Shown piece after piece: positions 587 through 21,001 of a stretch of DNA of 48,868 bases. The stretch is taken from the NCBI GenBank assembly GCA_031409655.1, contig JANNXQ010000067.1, positions 1 through 48,868 on the forward strand, read 5' to 3'. Made by a program: the position numbers and the translations under genes. Origin of the DNA: Chthoniobacteraceae bacterium. Its GTDB lineage: Bacteria > Verrucomicrobiota > Verrucomicrobiia > Chthoniobacterales > Chthoniobacteraceae. The stretch's first letter is position 1. Every line of letters begins with the position of its first letter. The notes beneath the pieces were generated by a model, which saw only the letters and a program-made list of their open reading frames with translations, was not told the origin of the DNA and made no database searches.

Positions 587-982
587 ATGAAACATCTCCT
601 CCTCACTCTCGTCATCGCGCTCACCGCTGCGGCCTCGTCGCTTGCGGCGGATCTGAAGGCTCTGGAAGCCAAGGTGGATGCGGCGCTTGCTGGCTACAAT
701 GCGGGCGACGCCAAGGCGTTTTATGCGAACTTTGCGAAGTCGGTGGAATCCATCGCGACGCCGCGGGTCTTCGACATGCTCTATGTGCAGGGGGCGAAGG
801 CGCAGTTTGGCAAATATGTCTCACGCCAGCTTATCAAGGGGGAATCAGTGACGGACGGCGACACGCTATTGCTCGTCTATGCAGCGAAGTGCGAGAAGAA
901 TGAGAAGGTGAAAGTTTCCATCAATGTGCAGAAGGAGGGCGCGGAGTATCGCTTCGTGCAGGTGCAATTCGCACCGATGTAG
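587..982 (+). CDS. Secreted hypothetical protein (DUF3887-like)
   Basis: Signal peptide, host-like codon usage, follows previous gene. Confidence 0.6.
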   Translation: MKHLLLTLVIALTAAASSLAADLKALEAKVDAALAGYNAGDAKAFYANFAKSVESIATPRVFDMLYVQGAKAQFGKYVSRQLIKGESVTDGDTLLLVYAAKCEKNEKVKVSINVQKEGAEYRFVQVQFAPM

Positions 983-1034
983 GCGGGCGAAATCGGGCGC
1001 GATGTGGCCACGATCGCCGCTGCCGCCCGAAGCA

Positions 1035-1535
1035 TCACCTTGGCGCGGCAGGCTGCTCTTCGGCTTTCACGCCTTTTTGATAAGTGGTGTAAACGTACAC
1101 GGGAATCTTAACCGTCCCGAGGTGCTGCTCGATCAAGGGGAGGACCTGGTCCCATTCGAGGCCACCCACTCCGGTCGCCAAACGGGTGATGGCGAGGCTC
1201 GGGATGCTTTCGGTTCCAACGAGCTTGTGCAACTCGCGCAGGCAGAGGGTGACATTGTGATAGGAAGCCTTGCCGGGGTGGGCGTGTTCGCTCGGAGCTG
1301 GTTCCTGGGTGAAAAGGTTGATGATGCGTTTGCCATTCGCGCCGGCCCAGACCCACAGGCCGCCGGGTTTCGGGTGCGCCGTGTGCAGGTAGTGGCGGAA
1401 ATCCTTGTAAAGCGCTGGCCAATCCTCCCGCAGGTGGAGCGCGAGGCCGGAAGTAAAGTGATCATTGGGCGCGATGCCGTGGGCCAGGGAGTGAGCATCG
1501 GTGAGGAGGATGTCGCCGGTGACGGATTGAATCAT
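1035..1535 (-). CDS. Macro domain protein (ADP-ribose processing, DarG/TARG1-like)
   Basis: Starts MIQSVTGDIL; IINLFTQ and RLATGVGGLEWDQV macro-domain motifs. Confidence 0.85.
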   Translation of the reverse strand: MIQSVTGDILLTDAHSLAHGIAPNDHFTSGLALHLREDWPALYKDFRHYLHTAHPKPGGLWVWAGANGKRIINLFTQEPAPSEHAHPGKASYHNVTLCLRELHKLVGTESIPSLAITRLATGVGGLEWDQVLPLIEQHLGTVKIPVYVYTTYQKGVKAEEQPAAPR

Positions 1536-1728
1536 AGGCGTGGAGCATAGCGAGGGTGGACGAGGCTCGCCCACACGTCGCTTGGCGGGAACGCACCGGA
1601 ATTTGCGAAGGATTCGTCGGGCTCTTGCTACGTGCGGCCCCCATCGTTATCGATCATCACTCATTGTGATTAGCGTTGCCTGCGTTCCCACCCTTGCCGC
1701 CGGGTTTTCCGTGCCCGGCTTCCTTTCG

Positions 1729-5887: not shown

Positions 5888-6075
5888 AGTCGGAGTGACG
5901 AAAAGAACGGCCGTCGGATGGCTACCCGGAGGCAAGCGGAGCCTCAAGGCAGTGTTGAGAAATCGAAAGGGCGGACATCTTTATCGGAGCGGGAGTGATT
6001 TTTTGGACGATCTGCTGGGGGTTACGAGGGGCCGCCGTGGCGTTTTTTCAGGAAAGTCGGAGATTTTTCGGGGAG

Positions 6076-6149
6076 CGCGCCCGGCGGGACTCGAACCCAC
6101 GACCTGCGGTTTAGAAGACCGCTGCTCTATCCAGCTGAGCTACGAGCGC
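6076..6149 (-). tRNA. tRNA-Arg (anticodon TCT), CCA not encoded
   Basis: Minus strand GCGCTCGTAGCTCAGCTGGATAGAGCAGCGGTCTTCTAAACCGCAGGTCGTGGGTTCGAGTCCCGCCGGGCGCG folds as a cloverleaf. Confidence 0.97.
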
Positions 6150-6153
6150 TTTG
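6109..6153. repeat. Left att core, 45 bp (tRNA nt 1-41 plus 4 nt of leader)
   Basis: gtttagaagaccgctgctctatccagctgagctacgagcgctttg identical to 14861-14905. Confidence 0.95.
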
Positions 6154-6154
6154 C

Positions 6155-6183
6155 AGAGTAAAAATGGGGCAAAGACCAGTAAA
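6155..6183 (-). promoter_or_regulatory. Putative element-borne sigma70 promoter for tRNA-Arg
   Basis: Minus strand TTTACT-17 nt-TACTCT ending 5 nt before the mature tRNA 5' end. Confidence 0.55.
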
Positions 6184-6188
6184 ACCGC

Positions 6189-6216
6189 TTGCCATTCTAC
6201 GGTCTGTTTCTACGGT
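6189..6216 (+). promoter_or_regulatory. Putative integrase promoter overlapping arm-type repeats
   Basis: TTGCCA-16 nt-TACGGT ending 6 nt before ATG 6223 (leaderless arrangement). Confidence 0.45.
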
Positions 6217-6246
6217 CACGCCATGAACAAAAACAAAACCGTAGAA
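6195..6246. repeat. Left integrase arm-type repeats
   Basis: TTCTACGGTC at 6195 and 6208, inverted near-copy AACCGTAGAA at 6237; same motif recurs near the right end. Confidence 0.75.
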
Positions 6247-7392
6247 AACAGCGGGAAGACATGGACTCGAACAAACGTTCAGAATTTGGTGCGGCATCGG
6301 AGTGGCCGTTATTATGCGCGGCTCTTCATCGGAGGCAAGGAGCGATGGAAGACACTCGGCACCGACGTACTCGAAGTCGCGAAGACGAAGGTCCGCAAAC
6401 TGGCTGGTGCGGCGGAGAAAATCTCTCGCTCCCAGCGCGCCCATGAGCGCGGACGGATGACCTTCGCCGACGCTGCCGTGATCTTCGATCAACGCCTGGC
6501 CGAAGGCTACGGACTGGCCAGACCGGGGCGCAAGGCCCGGCGCATCCGCCCGCGTGCGGTCAAGTATCGGCTGGAGACTCTGGCCGCGCTTTGGAAGTCG
6601 TGGCCGGACCTGCGCGACATGGATGTGCGAAAGATGAGCGCGCGGGACGCGGAGGCATGGGCAAAGAAGCTGGCGGCGAAATTCTCCGCGACCCGGTACA
6701 ACGGCATTCTGGAAACACTGCGGGCGCTAATCCTGATCGCGCAGGAGGCCGGAGCACTGGCCGACGATCCTACCGAGAGGCTTTCAAGGGAGACGGTGCC
6801 GCAGAAGAAGCTAGTCCTTCCTGAGCGTGGGCAGTTTCTCGATATGGTCGCCGCGATCCGCACCGCTGGCGGGCGCTTCTCCGCTGACTGCGCGGACATG
6901 GTGGAGTTTTTGGCATTCACCGGGGCGCGGCTGAGCGAGGCCGCTGCGGTCGTTTGGAGCGATGTGGACTTCCAGCGCGAGCGCATCCATCTGCGCGTGG
7001 TCAAAGGCGGAAAGCATCCGCGCTTCGTGCCGATGATCGCCGAAGCAAAAACGCTGCTCTCGCGGATGCGGTCGGAACGTCCAGACGAAGCGCCAGCCGA
7101 TCCCGTGCTGCTCGTGAACGAGGCGCAAAAGTCCATGGACCGCGCCGCGCAGAAAGTCGGCGTCGAGCGCATCACACATCACGATCTGCGGCATCTGTTC
7201 GCGACGATCGCCATCGAGAGCGGCGTCGATATTCCGACCGTCGCCCGCTTCCTTGGCCATGTGGACGGCGGTGCGCTCGCGATGAAGGTGTACGGGCACC
7301 TTCGCGACGGGCACGCACTGGAGGCAGCGCGCAAGATTAGCTTCGGCACTAGCGAGCCGGGAAACGTGATCGAGATGCGGGAGGCCGTATGA
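6223..7392 (+). CDS. int: Tyrosine recombinase/integrase
   Basis: TGARLSE, KGGK, HDLRH, LGH, KVY catalytic motifs; N-terminal YYARLFIGGKERWKTLGT arm-binding-like domain. Confidence 0.95.
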   Translation: MNKNKTVENSGKTWTRTNVQNLVRHRSGRYYARLFIGGKERWKTLGTDVLEVAKTKVRKLAGAAEKISRSQRAHERGRMTFADAAVIFDQRLAEGYGLARPGRKARRIRPRAVKYRLETLAALWKSWPDLRDMDVRKMSARDAEAWAKKLAAKFSATRYNGILETLRALILIAQEAGALADDPTERLSRETVPQKKLVLPERGQFLDMVAAIRTAGGRFSADCADMVEFLAFTGARLSEAAAVVWSDVDFQRERIHLRVVKGGKHPRFVPMIAEAKTLLSRMRSERPDEAPADPVLLVNEAQKSMDRAAQKVGVERITHHDLRHLFATIAIESGVDIPTVARFLGHVDGGALAMKVYGHLRDGHALEAARKISFGTSEPGNVIEMREAV

Positions 7393-8354: not shown

Positions 8355-8659
8355 TTGCACTACTCGACGCCAAGGCTGAAAAGTTTGTCCGGCTCGGATT
8401 GGACCGCGCCGCGAGTGAAGGCGAGGTCTCCACTTCCGGCGCCATGTTGTTTCGGCATCTCCGCTCTCAGGGAGTAACCGCCGACGCATTGCTAGGGACC
8501 GCCGCCCCTCACGAGGATTTCCACATCTGGTTTGGAAAATACAACGGACGCCCGATTTCAAAAGTGCCGGGCGATTATCTGCGATGGGTGCTCAGTAAGA
8601 TTGAAGACTTGCCGAGGGAATTTCGCCGCGCCGTCGAACAGGAGCTTGCCACCCGATGA
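8351..8659 (+). CDS. Hypothetical protein with C-terminal DUF3820-like motif
   Basis: IWFGKYNGRPISKVPGDYLRWV motif; coupled to flanking genes. Confidence 0.7.
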   Translation: MIALLDAKAEKFVRLGLDRAASEGEVSTSGAMLFRHLRSQGVTADALLGTAAPHEDFHIWFGKYNGRPISKVPGDYLRWVLSKIEDLPREFRRAVEQELATR

Positions 8660-10296
8660 CAACCGGGCGACCCACTTACGACGAAGCAATGGAGCGGGCG
8701 GCGCTTGGATGCGTCATCCGCGAACCGGAGCGAATGCAGGCTCTCGCCACGAGCGCGGACCCTTCCCACTTCTTCCATCCATCCACGCGCGCCATGTTTG
8801 ACGCGATGCTCTCCATTTACGCGACGGGCGGAACAATCGAGTTCCGCACCATCGGCTCAGAGATGACGAGACTCGGCACGCTCAAGGAAATCGGCAATCC
8901 CGGTTACATTACGCAATGCGCCGATGATGCACCCGCGCCTTCAATGCTCGACGAGTATCTCGTGAAACTTCGTGAGTTGGCGGACATCCGCTTCGGCGAA
9001 GGCGCAGATCAACCGGAGATTAGTGAATGGAGCGCGGTGAACCTGTTCCTTTCCCGTGCGCCGAAGCTGCGGTGCATCGGCACAACTTGGTACGCGTATC
9101 GAGATGGATGCTGGGCTGAAACAAGCCGCCACGAGTTCCGTCCGATCGCGCAGGAGGTGCAACCCCCACTTAAACGCACAGAACGCCGGGAGCGGGCCAT
9201 TCTGGATCACGCCGAGGGTCGTGTGCAGGTGAGCAAAGACAGCCTCCGAGGCTTCTACGCCAAAGACGGCGAGGCCATTCTTATCAATGTCGCCAATGGG
9301 ATTGCCAAAGTCACTGCGGAGCGCTGCGAACTATTGCCGCACAGTCCAGACCACAGCTTCACACTCAAGACCAAGGCGTCGTACGGACCTCACCTCGGCA
9401 GAGAGACGCCATCATTCGCCGCGACACTCAGCGAGGCCATGCCGGACTCCGAAGACCGTCGTCTGTTCCAGATGTTCGCCGGATCGTTGCTCCTTCCTGA
9501 CGCGCGCTTTGAATCCGCTCTCGTCTGTTATGGGCTGGCAGGCACGGGAAAGAGTACGGTCGCGGAGGGTGTAGCCGGAGCTTTGGGTGAACCCTTAGTT
9601 GCCAGGCTGACGATGAAGCAGCTCTGCGACCCCAAAGGCTACCACGTCCCGAGCCTGCGTTTCGCAGCGGTCAATCTAGGTACCGAGCTGGATTCTTTAG
9701 AGGTGGAGGACGGTGGCGCTTTCAAGGCGCTTGCGTCTGGTGAGGCCATTCAGGCCCGACCGATCTACGGCTCACCGTTTGTTATGCAGACAACGGCGAA
9801 GTTGATCTTCCTCAGCAACGACCTTCCGCGCTTCAAAAGCGGCACCGATGGTGAACTAAGGCGGATGCGCTTTATTCGCTTCGACCAGAAGCCCGCCGCA
9901 CCGAATACCAGATTGAAAGAGCAGATCGCCAGCGAGCGCGACGGCATCCTGGAATGGATGATAGAGGGATTGATGGCCGCACTGGACGAGGGTGCCATTC
10001 CGCAAGGTGGAGAAACCTCGCGAGCGGCGCTGAGTAGGTTCAGTATCAGCAATGATCCACTGGCCGGATTCGTCACCTCTCGGTGTGTCCTCGGTGCTCA
10101 CTACCGAGAGGACAAAGGCCACCTTGAAGGCGCATACGCTGAGTATCTGGAAGAGCACGGGATGCCGATCATTATGCAGACAAGCTTCCTAAAACGCCTG
10201 TACGAACGCTACCCGCAAGTGCGCGCCGTTCGTAACCGCGTCGCGGGAGGAGAGCGCCAGAGAGCAATCGTCGGGGTAAAACTGGCCGATGAGTAA
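8656..10296 (+). CDS. Replication protein: DnaB N-terminal-like domain fused to D5/P4-type SF3 helicase
   Basis: Walker A GLAGTGKST, LINVANG, KLIFLSNDLP, LRRMRFIRF; N-terminal ~105 aa follow the DnaB-NTD pattern. Confidence 0.85.
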   Translation: MTTGRPTYDEAMERAALGCVIREPERMQALATSADPSHFFHPSTRAMFDAMLSIYATGGTIEFRTIGSEMTRLGTLKEIGNPGYITQCADDAPAPSMLDEYLVKLRELADIRFGEGADQPEISEWSAVNLFLSRAPKLRCIGTTWYAYRDGCWAETSRHEFRPIAQEVQPPLKRTERRERAILDHAEGRVQVSKDSLRGFYAKDGEAILINVANGIAKVTAERCELLPHSPDHSFTLKTKASYGPHLGRETPSFAATLSEAMPDSEDRRLFQMFAGSLLLPDARFESALVCYGLAGTGKSTVAEGVAGALGEPLVARLTMKQLCDPKGYHVPSLRFAAVNLGTELDSLEVEDGGAFKALASGEAIQARPIYGSPFVMQTTAKLIFLSNDLPRFKSGTDGELRRMRFIRFDQKPAAPNTRLKEQIASERDGILEWMIEGLMAALDEGAIPQGGETSRAALSRFSISNDPLAGFVTSRCVLGAHYREDKGHLEGAYAEYLEEHGMPIIMQTSFLKRLYERYPQVRAVRNRVAGGERQRAIVGVKLADE

Positions 10297-12683: not shown

Positions 12684-13709
12684 ATGGCAAACCTCGCAGC
12701 ATCCATCGTCGCCCGGCTCGGGCTCGATACCGGCCCGCTGAAACGCGGACTCAAAGAAGCCGAGCGCGATGTCGGCGGATTCGCGAAGTCGCTTAACTTC
12801 CTCAAGGGAACGCTCGCGCTTATCGGCGTGCAAAAACTCGTTCAAGGATTCAAAGAAGTCGTCGGACTCGGCAAGGAACTGAACCCTGCACTTAAACATT
12901 CCGAGGAGACCTTGAGGGCACTCAATCAGGAATCGGCGGGTTTGACCGATGCGCAGCTCGAGGCGCTCTCCAAGATCGAGGACGGCTGGCTAGGTGTGGG
13001 TGCCCGTATCAAGGGCTTTTTCGCTCAGGTTGTCTTGAGCGCAGAACAGGCCAGCGCTGCCGCGAACGTGGATAACATCGCAGGCGGTGGAACGGGTGGC
13101 TTCTTCGGTAACTTCAAGAAGGCGTTCGCCGAAAATGGCAATCAGCGCGAACAAGCCAAAAAGGATGCGGAGGCTCGCGCTGCCGAAGCCGCTCAAGAAA
13201 AAGTGGCCGGGATCCACAACGAGATCGTTGAGCTACAGCGAGCGGACGCCACCAGCCGAATCTCGACCGGGGAGAAAATCCTTGAGATCGAGGAACGGAT
13301 CGCCGCCGCGCGAGCCGCACAGTTCAACACGGACCCCGTGTTGCAGGCCGGTGCGGAGAAGACGGAGGCGAAACTTAAGATCGAGAAAGCCGCGCTTGTG
13401 CGGCAGGAAAAGGAGGAGGAGGAAAAGGCATTTCAGCAGCGCATTGATGCGAAGCTCGTCCCCCTGGATGATCGGCGCAGCGCAAAGTCGCAAGCGGCTC
13501 TCCGCGCACGCACCGGGCGGGCCATCAAAAAGAACGATGAAAGCCGAGACCTTACCAACAGGTTGAACGGTCGGCAGCTTTCGCCGCGCAATTTACCGCC
13601 AGACATTGCGGCTCCAAACGCTCCGAAAGTGGCGGCCATCACTCCGGGTGAGACGCAGATTGTTCAGCGGATGGATACCCTGATCGAGAATTTGAAAGTG
13701 AAGGTTTAG
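12684..13709 (+). CDS. Short tape-measure-like protein (341 aa)
   Basis: N-terminus ASIVARLGLDTGPLKRGLKEAERDVGGF is typical of tail tape-measure starts; amphipathic and long coiled-coil segments follow. Confidence 0.65.
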   Translation: MANLAASIVARLGLDTGPLKRGLKEAERDVGGFAKSLNFLKGTLALIGVQKLVQGFKEVVGLGKELNPALKHSEETLRALNQESAGLTDAQLEALSKIEDGWLGVGARIKGFFAQVVLSAEQASAAANVDNIAGGGTGGFFGNFKKAFAENGNQREQAKKDAEARAAEAAQEKVAGIHNEIVELQRADATSRISTGEKILEIEERIAAARAAQFNTDPVLQAGAEKTEAKLKIEKAALVRQEKEEEEKAFQQRIDAKLVPLDDRRSAKSQAALRARTGRAIKKNDESRDLTNRLNGRQLSPRNLPPDIAAPNAPKVAAITPGETQIVQRMDTLIENLKVKV

Positions 13710-13736
13710 ACTTTCGTGAGGTGGCAATGGGGAAGC

Positions 13737-13773
13737 AAAAAGCCCGACCAGCGCAAACTGGTCGGGCTCTTTT
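13737..13773. terminator. Bidirectional intrinsic terminator
   Basis: AGCCCGACCAG-cgcaaa-CTGGTCGGGCT flanked by A and T runs between convergent genes. Confidence 0.85.
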
Positions 13774-13790
13774 GTGTCGAGTGGTGGGGA

Positions 13791-14033
13791 CTAGGCGATG
13801 ACGCGGGAAATCTCCTTTGCGTTCTTCATTTTTCGGAGCGTTATGGGGCTCACTCCGCGCAGCCTCGCCTCTTCGGTTTCCCCGGGTATTTCATCGGGGT
13901 TCCATGCGCGCATCAGGATCAGAGCCAATTTTTCGGGCGTGAGCTTTAGACGGGCAATCGCTATGTCCGTCGCTTCCGATACCAGGGAGGGAGGCAGTCT
14001 TTTCAACAACTGCGTGAGTTGGTCGGCGTTCAT
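13791..14033 (-). CDS. Small protein with possible C-terminal HTH
   Basis: MNADQLTQ...EEARLRGVSPITLRKMK; ATGA overlap with upstream gene. Confidence 0.6.
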   Translation of the reverse strand: MNADQLTQLLKRLPPSLVSEATDIAIARLKLTPEKLALILMRAWNPDEIPGETEEARLRGVSPITLRKMKNAKEISRVIA

Positions 14034-14254
14034 GCCGCGAGCTTCCGTGCCGCTGTCACGGTGGGCGACAGTTGGAGCAGGAACAGCACGCGCAAGAAGC
14101 TCTGGACGGACACCCGCGCCGTCTTCGCTCCCTCTAGCACAAGGGGAGCTAAATCGTGCGGCACTTCCAAGGGCTTTTTCTCTCCCAAGTCGATGAGGAT
14201 ACGACGGGCGGCGGGCTTGGTGGATTTCTTCACTGCGGTTTTCTGTGTTTTCAT
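14030..14254 (-). CDS. Small basic protein, ribbon-helix-helix-like; alternative in-frame start at 14347
   Basis: LEVPHDLAPLVLEGAKTARVSVQSFLRVL pattern; coupled to next gene. Confidence 0.55.
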   Translation of the reverse strand: MKTQKTAVKKSTKPAARRILIDLGEKKPLEVPHDLAPLVLEGAKTARVSVQSFLRVLFLLQLSPTVTAARKLAA

Positions 14255-14256
14255 CG

Positions 14257-14347
14257 GTATGCAAAAAGTCCGCTCCCGAAGGCTTACACCTTTTCGCCGC
14301 ACGGCATCACCCGGAACAGCTATCGGAAACGGACTTTGAATCTGCAT
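14257..14347 (-). promoter_or_regulatory. Structured leader carrying the two antisense target sites
   Basis: AAAGTCCGTTTCCGA pairs with TCGGGAGCGGACTTT, enclosing GGTGATG (14311-14305) and GTGTAAGC (14289-14282). Confidence 0.7.
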
Positions 14348-14350
14348 TAT

Positions 14351-14410
14351 GTGCGTCGCCCCGGTGATGGCCGGGATTTCAGAATGACGGTTGCCGTGTA
14401 AGCAGCAACG
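14351..14410 (-). ncRNA. C4/CI-like antisense RNA
   Basis: Outer stem CGTTGC/GCGACG with two hairpins presenting GCTTACAC and CATCACC, each complementary to a downstream site. Confidence 0.7.
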
Positions 14411-14415
14411 ATTCG

Positions 14416-14445
14416 AGATTGAGCGCACGCCGTGCCACCGTGCAA
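14416..14445 (-). promoter_or_regulatory. Putative promoter of the C4-like RNA operon
   Basis: TTGCAC-18 nt-CAATCT ending 5 nt before the predicted RNA. Confidence 0.45.
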
Positions 14446-14649
14446 GCGCAGAATTGACCGCTACGGGCGCTGCGTGTCCTGATGCCAGTTTCAGGCAAGC
14501 GGATGGCCCGCCTTGTGCGATGCAATGGGTGTCCCCACGCGGTTGCTGTGCGAAACCCTCCCCGGCTTGTCGCCTCGCCACGCGGCGGACATTTTTTTGG
14601 GATAGCGTCCGGCGTGGTCGTGGTTGGCGCGCCGGACGTGACCTTTGGG

Positions 14650-14735
14650 AACTTTTCACGGTCTTCTACGGTCCTGCTCAGAGACTATTTTTCCTCGTCC
14701 CCTAGCCTAACTTTTCACGGTCGTCTTCTACGGTC
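14650..14735. repeat. Right integrase arm-type repeats
   Basis: Two copies of AACTTTTCACGGTC(GTC)TTCTACGGTC at 14650 and 14709; share TTCTACGGTC with the left end. Confidence 0.8.
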
Positions 14736-14860
14736 GCGCCCCTTTTCGGTGGAAAGCGGTGAAAAACGAAGACAAACGCAATCGACCGCAAACCCTTTGT
14801 GGAGGCTGATCCGCAGCCGATTCGGTAAACTGTGAAAAACAGGCAAAACCGCCGTTTTCC

Positions 14861-14905
14861 GTTTAGAAGACCGCTGCTCTATCCAGCTGAGCTACGAGCG
14901 CTTTG
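14861..14905 (-). repeat. Right att core: displaced 5' fragment of tRNA-Arg(TCT)
   Basis: Identical to 6109-6153; tRNA similarity stops 2 nt past the anticodon loop. Confidence 0.95.
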
Positions 14906-15067
14906 GCGACACTGCCCCGAGCGGGAGGATGGATGCCATGGAATGCCTGAACCGACCAGCGGAAAAGCGCGGGTCTGCTGGCGCCAGCGTGTTCGAGGAG
15001 CGGCGGAAGGGGTGAGAAATTCACGAAACTCCCTTTGCACGGCGCGGGACCTTTGCTAGAAATTCCG

Positions 15068-16323: not shown

Positions 16324-18525
16324 CTAGCCCGGGAGCGGGAAGCGGCGCGTGAGATTGCGCACCTTTTCGCGGATGGCCGCGAGGGCTGCGGGGTCTTCAC
16401 GCTTGGTCAGCGCTTCGTGCATGAGGTCGGCGATTTCCATCATGTCGTCCTCTTTCATGCCGCGGCTGGTCACGGCAGGCGTGCCGACGCGGATGCCGCC
16501 GCCGAGCGAGATTTTCTCGGTGTCGAAAGGGATGCCGTTCTTATTCACGGTGATGCCGGCGTGATCGAGCACCTCGCTGGCGATCTTGCCGTTGAGGCCT
16601 TTCGGACGGAGGTCCACGAGCATCAGGTGATTGTCCGTGCCGCCGCTGGCGAGGCGGTAGCCGTGATGCTGGAGCCGGGCGGCGAGGGCTTTGGCGTTGC
16701 TCACGACCTGCGCGGCGTACGCTTTGAAGGAAGGCTGGAGGGCTTCGAGGAAGCACACCGCTTTCGCCGCGATGACGTGTTCGAGCGGGCCGCCCTGGAT
16801 GCCGGGGAAAACCTGGCCATCGATGGCTTTCGCGTATTGCTCCTTGCAGATGATGATGCCTCCGCGCGGTCCGCGCAGGCTCTTGTGGGTCGTCGTGGTG
16901 GTGAAGTCCGCCAGCGCGCAAGGATTCGGATGCAGACCGCCCGCGACAAGGCCGGCGATGTGCGCCATGTCCACGAAGAGATAAGCGCCCACGCTATCGG
17001 CAATCTGGCGCATCCGCGCGAAGTCGATGATCCGCGAGTAGGCGCTGGCCCCGGCGGTGATCATCCGCGGCTTCACCTCCAGAGCGACGGCGGCGAGGGC
17101 GTCGTAGTCGATGCGCTCGTCCTTTTCGCTCACGCCGTAGTGGGTGACTTCATAGAAGCGCCCGGAAAAATTCGCTTTGTGGCCGTGCGTGAGATGGCCG
17201 CCGTGGGCGAGGTTCATCGTCAGGATTTTGTCGCCCAGATTCAGCATGGCGAAATAGACCGCGGTATTCGCCTGCGAACCGGAGTGCGGCTGCACGTTCA
17301 CATGCTCGGCTCCAGGAAAGAGCAGCTTCACGCGATCGATGGCCAGTTGCTCGACCACATCCACGTGCTCGCAACCCCCGTACCAACGCCGACCCGGATA
17401 GCCTTCCGCGTACTTATTGGTGAGGCAGGAGCCCTGCGCTTCCATCACGGCGCGGCTGGTGAAATTCTCGCTGGCGATGAGCTCGATGTTCTCAAATTGC
17501 CGCCGCGCTTCGGCCTGCACGGCAGCGAAGATTTCCGGGTCCGCCTCGGCAAGCGACAGCGTCTGCATGTTCGCCATGCCGATTTGCTCCAGCTTCTCGA
17601 TGCGCCGCGCATGGCGTCCACCTTCAAAACCCGTCCCGAGAAATGCCTCGACGATCTTCGCGACCTGGATGCTCTCGACGTGATTCGCCGCAAGGCAGAG
17701 CACGTTGGAATTGTTGTGCTGCCGGGTCGTGCGGGCGTCTTCGGCGCTGGCCACGAGGGCCGCGCGGATTTGCGGATGCCGATTCGCTGCGATGCTCATC
17801 CCGATCCCACTCTTACACGCGAGGATGCCGAAGTCCGCCGCCGTGCTGATGACCTCGTGGCACACCGGTTCGGAGAAATCCGAGTAATCGACCGACTCCG
17901 CCGAGTTCGTCCCGAAGTCGGTGACGATGTGCCCCTTTTTAGAAAGGTAATCGTGGATCGCGCTCTTGAGTTCGACGCCGCCGTGATCGGCCCCGAGGGC
18001 AATGCGGAGGGGGCGGCTGAAGGTGCTGGGCTGGGTGGTGGGTGAAGACTGCGCGGTGGACATGGATGGGGATTTTTCGAGGAAGTTGAAAAGGCTGGGC
18101 GTCGCGCGCTGGAGGGCATCCCGCGTGTCGAGATAGGCGTCGAGACCCATGCCGATCGGATCTGGTACGTCTGGATTCTCATCCCGGGCGCTCTCGTCGA
18201 ATTGGCGGACGAGAAAGACCTTCTCCGCCGCCTCCGGGAAGAACATCAGGATCGTGTCGAGATGCCCCTGGGTCATCGCAAAGATGTGCGTGGCCCAACC
18301 GACGAGATCGTCCGTGAGCGGCTGACTGCGCTGCCAGCCGATGTCGATGCCGAGTGGCTTCAGCGCGGTCACGGAATGCGGACTCGGCGCCTGCCCGTAT
18401 CCCGTCGAGACACCCGCCGAGGCTACTTCGTAGTCCTTGCGCCCCTTGACGGCGTCACGAAAGAGACCTTCAGCCATCGGGCTGCGGCAGATGTTTCCGG
18501 TGCAGACAAAGAGGATGCGTTTCAA
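16324..18525 (-). CDS. glyA: Fusion of LMW protein Tyr/Arg phosphatase, RpiB and serine hydroxymethyltransferase
   Basis: One frame holds [17 protein letters not shown]...GGRHARR, and [31 protein letters not shown] start inferred. Confidence 0.92.
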
Positions 18526-18703
18526 AAGGCGCGGCGTGAGGGCGGGAAGATAGGGACGCAGATTTGCCAAGTCAACGCGGTCGGGTGCCGGGAAGAATGG
18601 GCTTGCCCCGCGCAGTTCCTTCGCGAATGGAAACAGCCATGGCTGTCTCTGACCCATGTTCGAAATGCGACCGCGCCGGCTTCGCGGTGGCCGGTGTGGA
18701 GCC

Positions 18704-21001
18704 ATGACGGCGGAACGCGCCGCCGCACGTCCAGTGGAGGAGCGGGGCGTCCGCTGGCGGCGCTGGCTCTGGGGTTTCGCGATCGTCGTCGCGACCTGCG
18801 GGGCCTACTACCCCTGTCTCCACGGGAGCTTTTTGTGGGACGATGATGCCTGGACCACGCGGCTCCAGCCACTCTTCGAATCAGGAACCGCCCTCCGCCA
18901 GATTTGGACGAATCCAACAGCGCTGCAGCAGTTCTATCCGCTCACGGGGACCACTTTCTGGGCGGACCACCACCTCTGGGGCGGCTGGACGCTGCCTTAC
19001 CACCTTCAGAATGTGCTCCTCCACGCGATCGCGGCGCTGCTCTTTTGGAAGGTGCTGCGTCGCTTGGAAGTTCCGGGAGCCTGGCTGGCCGCCGGGATTT
19101 TTGCGGTCCATCCCGTGATGGTCGAATCCGTGGCCTGGGTCGCGGAGCGGAAGAATGTGCTCTCGCTCGCGCTCTTTCTCGGGGCGCTGGCGTCGTATGC
19201 GCGCTTTGCGGGAGATTGGCGGGCTGATGCGGAGCCGGGGCCGCGGGGATCTTACTTCGCTGCCTTGGGGCTCTTCCTCGGCGCGCTTTTGGCGAAGGTC
19301 ACGGCTTACGTTTTTCCTCCGACGATCCTCATCATCTGCTGGTGGAAGCGGGGCCGGATTTCGCGGCGCGACATCATTCCGCTTTTGCCGTTCTTCGCAC
19401 TCTCCTTCGTCGTGGGGACGATTGTCACCTGGGTGGAGATTGTTCACGTCGGGGCCGAGGGAGAGGACTGGCAGGCGACCTTCGGCCAGCGTCTGTTGCT
19501 CGCGGGACGGGCGGTCTCGATGTATCTCGCGCGGCTGCTCTGGCCGGCGGATCTCTGCTTCATGTATCCGCGCTGGGAGTTGGACACGGGGTCGATCACG
19601 CAGTGGCTTTTTCCCATCGGGGTGGTGGCGTTCGCGGGGGCGCTCTGGCGCTTTCGGCAGCGGCTCGAGCGCGGGGTCTTCGCGGCCGTGTTCTTTTTCG
19701 CGGGCACCATTTTTCCCGTCCTTGGTTTTATGAACGTGTACGGCATGCGCTTCGCATCGGTGGCGGATCACTGGGTGTACGTCTCCAGCCTCAGCGTTTT
19801 TGCCTTGGGCGCGAGTGCTCTGGTGCTCGCTGCCGAGCGGCTGCGCCGGGCTTGGATCGGGCCGGCCTTCGCGGCCTGTGTTCTCCCCTTGCTGGCGGGC
19901 CTGAGCTGGCGGGAAGCGGCGCAGTATCGCGATGCGGAGACACTCTGGCGCTCCACGATCTCCAGGAATCCCGGGAACTGGATGCCTTACTACAGCCTCG
20001 GATTGCTCAAGATGGAGCAAGGTCGCGCGGAGGAGGCTCTGGGCTACTATCGGCAATCGATCGAGCGGAAGCCGCGGCACCCCATCGCCTACAGCAACAT
20101 CGGCGTTGCCCTTTTTCAGCTCGGGCGCGATCCCGAGGCGGTTGCCTCCTTTGATAAGGCCATCGCCCTCGGTGTGCGGATGCCGGAAGTGCAGGCCAAT
20201 CTCGCGAATGCGCTGCTCCGGCTGGGGCGCAGCGACGATGCGATCTTCGCGTTGCGTGAATCCGTGAGCATCGACCCTCGCCGCGCAACCACGCACCTGG
20301 CCCTGGGATCGGCGTATGCAAAGAAGGGGCGTCCCGATGACGCGCTGGCGAGTTACCAGGCGGCGGTCGAAATCGATCCCACCAGTGCCGTGGCCCATTT
20401 CGCTTTGGGAAATCTCCTGCTCAAGCACGGTCGCGCCGCAGACGCGGTCGCGCATTTCCAAACGGCGGTCGCCTGCGATCCGAAGCTCGCTGCGGCGCAC
20501 GGAAACCTCGGTCTGGCTTTGCTCCAGATCGGGAGAGCGCAGGACGCGATCACCCATTGCCAGCAGGCCACGCGGCTCGATCCGCAGTTGCCGGAAGCGC
20601 ACAATAATCTCGGCCAGGCCTATCTCCGCTCCAGTCGTTTTCGCGAGGCGGCGGCAGCGTTTCGACGCGCGCTCGACCTGAACCCTGGCCATCTCTCGGC
20701 GTTGGCGAATTGCGCCTGGGTGCTCGCGGCGAGCCCAGACGCCACGGTGCGCGATGGCGAGCAGGCCTTGGAACTGGCCAAGCGGGCCGAGCAGGGTCAC
20801 GCGGGCCGCGACCTCTTTACCTTGCGCGCTCTCGCTGCCGCCTACGCCGAGACGGGGGCATTTTCCGTGGCCGAAGATACCGTCCAGCGCGCCCTCGGGA
20901 CCACGAAAATCCCCGAGCAGACCGCCATCCTGCAAGAGGAACTCGCCCTCTATCGGTCAGGCAGGCCCTATCGCCTGCCGAGCAGTGGTCCCGTCAATTG
21001 A
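18704..21001 (+). CDS. TMTC-like GT-C membrane glycosyltransferase with TPR repeats
   Basis: [26 protein letters not shown] motifs, multiple TMs, C-terminal TPR array. Confidence 0.85.

Follow-up and report, generated by a model that had tools for sequence, protein, structure and literature searches.

The minus strand of a 48,868-nt stretch of DNA from a Chthoniobacteraceae bacterium (hereafter the window) carries, ahead of two short genes, two sequence words that recur further downstream as their exact complements. Does this region encode an RNA that controls the genes behind it through pairing between its own parts, and does that RNA belong with the C4 and CI RNAs of enterobacterial phages? 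The original prediction had taken it for a C4/CI-type antisense switch with two loop-target pairs. Our analysis points to a conserved 5' leader RNA of about 160 nt, of a family absent from Rfam, and the reading that we favour, with a probability of about one half, is that of a switch which would control, by premature termination, the first operon of integrated mobile elements.

The leader lies at one end of an integrated element

The locus belongs to an 8752-bp element bounded by a pair of 45-nt direct repeats (6109-6153 and, at the right end, 14861-14905), each consisting of 4 nt plus positions 1-41 of a tRNA-Arg(TCT). The element encodes a tyrosine integrase (6151-7392; Phage_integrase match, 1.8e-21) and a D5/DnaB-type primase-helicase (8656-10296; DnaB N-terminal, D5_N and DUF5906 domains; PHROG DNA primase, 1.8e-45), and its plus strand also carries several genes of no assigned function. 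With both enzymes encoded and flanked by att repeats at a tRNA gene, the element is P4-like in its composition. The regions 6075-6153 and 14861-14905 show that the repeat is formed by the 5' half of the tRNA-Arg(TCT) gene, positions 1-41 with 4 nt upstream, and not by the usual 3' part. Upstream of the intact tRNA-Arg there is consequently element DNA, from the integrase side, and the 5' fragment that was displaced, together with the native upstream region, faces into the element, toward the leader.

The leader itself is located about 420 nt inward of the right repeat, at the tRNA-Arg end of the element, and heads a minus-strand unit of two genes, g1 and g2, closed by a hairpin terminator that lies between convergent units (13741-13768; an 11-bp stem, 8 of whose pairs are GC). 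Directly after the leader comes g1 (14030-14254, minus strand), which encodes 74 aa and whose start at 14254 is also the one given by the protein database's gene caller; g2 (13791-14033, minus strand) encodes 80 aa, its start codon overlapping the stop of g1 (ATGA). Ahead of the leader promoter stand two minus-strand copies of a GACCGTAGAA..GACCGTGAAAAG repeat (14650-14678 and 14712-14737). This repeat is also present upstream of the leader at three other loci (L039, L041 and L054), and in related genomes (also L003-L011) its copies either lie close to tRNA-Arg genes or precede the leader; they could serve as arm sites of the integrase or as sites for a regulator.

DNA contigs from four sequencing runs contain fragments of the locus, all identical and with zero variant letters; no RNA run is listed for the locus. 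A 151-nt contig of a second sediment study, of low depth and from two runs, equals 14294-14444 exactly, which is most of the leader, and another contig of that study matches a 49-nt stretch (14289-14337) with 7 differences. Elsewhere in the window, a 793-aa ORF (16324-18705, minus strand) appears from its sequence alone to be a fusion of low-molecular-weight phosphatase-like, RpiB-like and serine hydroxymethyltransferase parts.

Complementary segments and the predicted fold

On the minus strand, GCTTACAC (14403-14396) is complementary to GTGTAAGC (14289-14282; pair A-D), and CATCACC (14369-14363) to GGTGATG (14311-14305; pair B-C); the positions originally proposed for both pairs are exact to the base. 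The ViennaRNA fold of the region comprises five hairpins, one of them in promoter DNA, and according to this prediction all four complementary segments would centre on hairpin loops, which we call A, B, C and D.

The leader motif extends over 158 model positions (14255-14412, minus strand, as are all features of this paragraph); it begins approximately where transcription would start and stops 1 nt short of the start codon. Its 5' domain consists of hairpin A (14390-14409; 7-bp stem, hexaloop CUUACA at 14402-14397) and stem P2 (14354-14389), which encloses hairpin B (loop CCAUCA, 14370-14365) together with an unpaired, conserved segment, AUUCUGAAA. An A/C-rich linker, single-stranded and about 12-18 nt long, connects it to the 3' domain (14259-14347; MFE -42 kcal/mol), where a long stem (14347-14323 with 14279-14259; strands AAAGUCCG and CGGACUUU) bears a three-way junction with two hairpins on top: hairpin C (14296-14320; loop GUGAUG at 14310-14305), whose partner is loop B, and hairpin D (14280-14291), whose partner is loop A. 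A terminator-like U5 tract (14263-14267) adjoins the 3' side of the long stem, and the leader ends in CGGACUUUUU, directly before ATG 14254.

Taken on its own, the sequence of the window is not decisive. The z-score of the whole-region fold is only -1.97, and although a nested 8+7 pair occurred in 1.2% of 5000 dinucleotide shuffles of the 189-nt region, and at least five complementary 7-mers in 0.3% of them, such a nested pair is found in 60 of 1623 segments of 189 nt slid along the real 48.9-kb sequence (3.7%), a rate at which about two dozen would be met across the whole window. Figures of this order would suit chance complementarity in an ordinary 5' untranslated region. The significance of the pairs comes instead from 33 homologues, which show compensatory changes in every helix and in both loop-loop pairings; these rule the chance explanation out, and we give it a negligible probability.

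Homologues of the leader

None of the 4227 families of Rfam 15 matched the motif at the gathering score, nor the region 13700-15000 at E ≤ 10, and 12 homologue loci gave no Rfam match at E ≤ 1, which speaks against the membership in the C4/CI family that the original prediction had assigned. A BLAST-type DNA search of 100 relatives recovered no homologue of the leader, only the GACCGTAGAA repeat, and a covariance model was therefore needed. The first model, built from the single window sequence and its predicted structure, returned full-length matches with E down to 1e-21 in 150 genomes of the same family. The second, built from 16 copies, detected the motif in 14 of 150 other genomes sampled across the order, from six further families, and in 1 of 150 other genomes sampled across the phylum. 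Run on its own sequence, model R1 of the motif scored 198.9 bits. The resulting alignment holds 34 copies, that of the window and 33 more; the latter are spread over 26 other genomes belonging to the same order or class.

In IMG/VR, 63 sequences fitted a pattern of the motif, and the model confirmed three of these, two full-length and one a 3' domain alone. The latter (L104 1485-1562; model positions 70-150, 57 bits) lies in a provirus fragment of 44.6 kb, a record that holds neither a 5' domain nor sequences complementary to the loops, and no start codon follows the 3' domain. Scans anchored on the proteins found no close locus in genome, viral or metagenome contig collections; they returned one distant g2 relative in genome contigs and none in viral or metagenome contigs. 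Full-text searches of the literature found no description of the motif.

Near the copies of the leader are genes for integrase, capsid, tail, Mu F and helicase proteins, and the host genes in their vicinity carry PSCyt and DUF1501 domains, which are typical of the PVC group. At 6 of 32 loci a tRNA or tmRNA gene is located 100-620 nt upstream of the leader on the same strand, and tRNA fragments lie near the leader in the window and in L041. The upstream tRNA and tmRNA genes indicate that the motif usually heads the first operon inside the attachment site.

Some loci have a particular arrangement. In L044 two leaders with different loops stand back to back, about 350 nt apart (978-1146, minus strand, and 1501-1695, plus strand), and the equivalent region of L061 likewise has two; one leader of these pairs is directly upstream of an integrase gene. 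Two copies on the same strand of one contig, 6.8 kb apart (L082 and L083, contig C35 of G558), have A loops UUAGCG and UUUGCG, with compensation in loop D. A SAM riboswitch (66.9 bits; L041 2558-2699) was observed in host DNA near one copy of the element.

Covariation of helices and loop-loop pairings

Over the 34 copies, 94.5% of the helix cells are standard pairs, as compared with 40-45.5% when the partners are slid, compensatory changes occur in 48 of 50 pairs, and zero shuffles reach any of the observed values (all these secondary-structure counts come from an alignment fitted to the model and are thereby inflated, the margin being large). Helix 1, the stem of hairpin A, is 97.9% paired with 7 of 7 pairs compensatory, helices 2 and 3 (P2 and hairpin B) are 93.9% and 91.7% paired, and helix 6, in the long stem, is 97.5% paired with all of its 14 pairs compensatory. 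Helix 4, which sits 4-7 nt from the end of the motif, covaries as well, and together with helix 5 carries the pairing to about 8 nt from the start codon. Since G-U cells outnumber A-C cells by 190 to 28, the folding strand is the one that carries the downstream gene in sense orientation.

Loops had been left unpaired in both models, and the alignment was thus not fitted to the loop pairings. For A-D, 84.5% of the cells are paired (31-54.5% when slid), the covariation score is 0.674 against 0.220 in shuffles, a value reached by 0 of 500 of these, and each of the six central pairs is altered on both sides in 7-17 of the 34 copies. At least six contiguous Watson-Crick pairs are present in 31 of 34 cognate combinations (mean 7.4) and in 40 of 1122 non-cognate ones, and 0 of 5000 permutations matched loops as well; the exceptions are L039 and L046, with six pairs including one G-U each, and the degenerate L047. 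In the window hairpin D folds as AGGU-GUAA-GCCU with loop GUAA, but its innermost 'pair' is mostly U-G or unpaired among the copies, and the hairpin is better described as a 3-bp stem with a hexaloop (AGG-UGUAAG-CCU), which makes A-D a loop-loop (kissing) contact.

The B-C pairing is shorter, typically 4-7 bp, with 78.4% of the cells paired and a covariation score of 0.259 against 0.136 shuffled (0 of 500 shuffles reach it). Its two central pairs exchange cleanly: 59-247 is UA in 12 copies, CG in 11, AU in 2 and GC in 1, and 60-246 is CG in 12, GC in 8 and UA in 3. Where a longer insertion replaces hairpin B (L042, L053 and L044), the partner of loop C is inside the insertion. Judged from the aligned sequences, then, A-D covaries strongly and B-C moderately. 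The nested pairing of two loops with two downstream sites is in this respect as originally predicted, and the lack of loop-target covariation, which was to have told against that prediction, is not what we observe. Such covariation is explained equally well by pairing within one molecule.

A few other features of the fold were considered and dropped. The junction strands (UA, and a variable GAAA/GAUA/AACA/GACA) are not the CUGAUGA/GAAA core of a hammerhead, and there is no Rfam match to this or another known self-cleaving ribozyme; a match of the loops to the anticodon loop of the adjacent tRNA was dismissed on viewing the alignment; a start-stop mini-ORF in hairpin D is not conserved; and an alternative pairing of A-stem with C-stem, present in the window and L037, is missing from L038.

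While the loops vary freely, the unpaired stretches UUCUGAAA, GAUAGC and CGAnAAGG are conserved, and these might form the binding site for a signal in a riboswitch-like or antiterminator-binding leader, the kissing loops then being constitutive tertiary structure. A compact fold with two long-range contacts is known from several riboswitch classes and would suit such a ligand- or protein-binding leader. We nevertheless consider it very unlikely, as the downstream genes share no metabolic theme and no partner gene is conserved next to the motif.

Promoter, U-run and downstream genes

Just upstream of the motif the copies share a promoter-like pattern, TTGaC-17-(C/T)AnnnT. In an ungapped upstream alignment T is found at -32 and at -31 in 22 of 34 copies each, G at -30 in 21, and A at -8 and T at -4 in 22 each, the conserved boxes spanning -32 to -28 and -9 to -4. 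The corresponding boxes of the window, both on the minus strand, are TTGCAC (14440-14445) and CAATCT (14416-14421), which align with the boxes conserved by position, CAATCT ending 3 nt before model position 1; the spacer between them is 18 nt, which places the -35-like box one base further upstream. A promoter consensus scan of the window did not call the leader promoter. From its conserved position, a sigma-70-like promoter would start the RNA at hairpin A; the order originally proposed, a promoter-like site followed by a structured RNA, agrees with these aligned boxes and with the covarying helices.

The long stem is followed by a U-run: of the 34 copies, 32 have 5 or more T in the adjoining 8 nt and 29 have 4 or more in succession. 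Positions 305-307 remain U while other pairs covary. In 25 of the 34 copies an ATG-led ORF starts 0-10 nt past the motif; in the other 9 the next one is more than 15 nt away or was not found. An in-frame stop lies within 32 codons upstream of the start in 17 of the 25 close-start copies, and the leader region is for this reason not coding. The ATG at 14347-14345, which had been put forward as reading through the targets into the gene, is indeed in frame with the gene starting at ATG 14254, but in view of these stops it is incidental.

These features bear on the possibility that control is purely translational, the base of the long stem (helices 4 and 5 and the U-run) hiding the ribosome landing site and the kissing loops stabilising the closed form, with no termination of transcription. 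The start codon 0-10 nt past the motif in 25 of 34 copies and the covariation of helix 4, so near the motif end, would fit, as would the absence of a Shine-Dalgarno sequence at usable distance in the window copy, whose GGGAG is 18 nt upstream. It is less easily reconciled with a U-run that is kept as U and does not covary, which is more typical of a terminator, with the 9 copies that have no close ATG-led ORF, or with the stand-alone 3' domain of L104, which has no start codon behind it. We hold it to be unlikely.

The first gene behind the leader differs from copy to copy. For g1, which is possibly RHH-like, there is no Pfam match; its protein language-model neighbours include RHH_1 and RHH_5 clusters (0.91; a lead only), and its AF2 model is of low confidence (pLDDT 62). 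The AF2 model of g2 is all-helical with five helices (pLDDT 64), the protein matches AbiEi_4 only at E = 0.038, and it has relatives of 30-38% identity in 17 other genomes. Both g1 and g2 were orphans in a search of 5.8 billion protein clusters. Among the copies, the first gene after the motif is RadC-like in one (a confident match) and an integrase in one; weak, sub-threshold RHH-type matches were obtained for 3 of 30 first genes and nothing for the rest, and no partner gene is conserved beside the motif. Two DNA-binding-like genes, the target originally suggested, are therefore not general to the family.

In two other genera of the same family (labelled g2 and g9; L016-L028), relatives of the g2 protein occur in a conserved three-gene cassette, found in 5 of 5 and 7 of 7 genomes searched, that encodes a protein of about 82 aa starting MPGVRDPNK, a g2-like protein of about 108 aa (EEAxLRGVxxKTLRGMK) and a small third protein. 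These cassettes have neither g1 nor the leader motif, and their intergenic regions fail to align to the leader.

Proposed premature termination and possible immunity in trans

The aligned copies show a leader RNA whose promoter would start it at hairpin A and which folds into the 5' hairpins A and B and the long stem topped by the three-way junction with hairpins C and D; the A-D contact spans 6-8 bp and the B-C contact 4-7 bp. On this basis we propose the following course of events. Long stem and U-run would stop RNA polymerase before the gene, and the two kissing contacts, by docking the 5' domain onto the top of the stem, would set how well the stem forms or holds. Downstream regulatory or excision genes would thus stay silent until some input relieves the block. 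Such pairing would operate within a single transcript at the least; were the 5' domain to build up as a free RNA, other copies might be affected as well, which would follow the logic of P4 CI immunity without homology to it.

Several observations count against this termination reading. A covarying helix of 14 bp with U5-7 behind it recalls a terminator, but a three-way junction stands where a small loop would be expected; a branched stem top is atypical for intrinsic terminators, and a terminator scan made no call. The loop targets do not overlap the lower stem, which makes it hard to see how kissing loops would change termination, and helices 4 and 5, being near the start codon, fit translational control equally well. 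An attenuator is further disfavoured by a fold that could be purely constitutive and intramolecular, with no obvious input signal, and by the 3' domain that stands alone in L104.

The last two points would be better accommodated by strict immunity of the C4/CI type. C4 and P4 CI are processed small RNAs of about 70-80 nt that act in trans and give immunity; C4 recognises its targets through two loops, a' and b', and these targets cover the ribosome-binding site of the first downstream gene, icd. Here, the 5' domain of about 60 nt (hairpin A and P2/B) would be excised, accumulate, and pair in trans with C and D of nascent leaders of the same specificity, thereby silencing the operon and excluding related incoming elements, with the loops defining immunity groups. 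The layout matches, in that a mobile element has antisense part and targets together in a transcript, ahead of its regulatory genes; in size the 5' domain is similar to CI and C4, and the single-stranded linker separates it from the 3' domain. There are 27 distinct A hexaloops among the 34 copies, and copies residing in the same genome all differ in loop A (three each in G448 and G108, two each in G029, G019 and G558). A signal in trans would also provide the input that is missing from a purely constitutive fold within one molecule, and the provirus fragment L104 has a 3' domain with no cognate 5' domain in its 44.6 kb.

Against immunity of this strict type stand the unmatched Rfam C4 model and a kinetic argument, namely that a trans RNA would lose the competition with the 5' partner present in the target's own transcript, unless that partner were masked. 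The trans targets that the original prediction had envisaged did not emerge: in the 6.85-Mb genome the two-site pattern occurs at the locus only (expected count below 1), and single 10-mer loop targets have background-like counts, with no further one inside the element. Variability is not clearly higher in the loops than in the stems (identity of 40%, as against 50% elsewhere in the motif), and different loops in co-resident copies are what random sampling would be expected to give, because only 3.6% of non-cognate pairs match. Moreover, the targets lie 28-57 nt upstream of the start codon, and not on it as in C4/icd. On balance we regard strict C4/CI-type immunity as possible but doubtful. 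Slightly more speculative is its bolder form, an RNA-only immunity of PVC-bacterial integrative elements and prophages, in which a released two-hairpin 5' RNA would recognise the terminator-top hairpins of its own kind via two programmable kissing loops, and the dozens of natural loop pairs would be orthogonal specificities deciding which elements can coexist in a cell.

The leader adds a well-supported structured RNA family, with 34 copies, covariation in all helices and two long-range loop-loop pairings, to a group of bacteria that has been little studied. RNA-RNA recognition is thereby placed where integrated elements and prophages are controlled, at a great distance from the enterobacterial phages of C4 and CI. 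Should the pairing set termination or immunity, the 27 natural loop pairs would be a ready-made set of RNA switches that are orthogonal to one another. As a marker of the att-proximal end, the motif also helps to delimit the elements in metagenome-assembled genomes.

Comparison with known systems

Recognition by complementary loops is familiar from plasmid antisense control. In CopA/CopT, RNAI/RNAII and pT181, fully complementary loops of 6-7 nt begin the recognition, and in pT181 the outcome is a terminator before the start codon. These antisense RNAs are made from the opposite strand, whereas both partners are here on the same strand and in the same transcript. The pRNA of phi29 likewise has a three-way junction and two loops whose complementarity covaries while their sequence drifts. 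Its loops, however, pair between molecules to form the packaging ring, and the motif described here, which has a promoter, a U-run and a start codon, is the leader of a gene.

Among prophage leaders, IsrK of Gifsy-1 is described as existing both as a short transcript that ends by termination and as a read-through transcript, and RNA-RNA pairing decides whether the downstream gene is expressed (PMC4825925). IsrK differs from the present leader in that it activates translation in trans, and the two show no homology. According to the same account, the leader-derived P4 CI RNA pairs with seqA and seqC and causes premature termination (PMC4825925). As in P4 CI, a leader with its own promoter lies in an integrative element with integrase and primase-helicase, short segments are complementary within one transcript, and premature termination is proposed to occur before the downstream genes. 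In contrast to P4 CI, to which no homology in sequence or structure was detected, two hairpin loops would pair with two hairpin loops on a terminator-like three-way junction, where P4 has one segment with an upstream and a downstream site, and the hosts are PVC-type bacteria and not enterobacteria.

The P1/P7 C4 RNA (RF01695) is presented as an RNA that recognises two sites and that shares an operon of a mobile element with its targets, which lie downstream of it (PMC8198154). To that extent the leader is alike, and it also has two short loops complementary to two sites further down the transcript. It differs in that no covariance-model match to RF01695 was obtained (c4-a1b1 has no Rfam accession in the 2010 table), in downstream genes that are unrelated to icd/ant, and in its targets, which at 14311-14305 and 14289-14282 are 28-57 nt upstream of ATG 14254 and off the ribosome-binding site. 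Given the failed family-model test and the position of the targets, the leader is not a member of the C4 family. Its absence from Rfam, its host group and its hairpin-on-terminator architecture make it new beside C4 and CI, and by analogy it would work like that class to the extent that two-site pairing within the same transcript precedes the regulatory genes of a mobile element.
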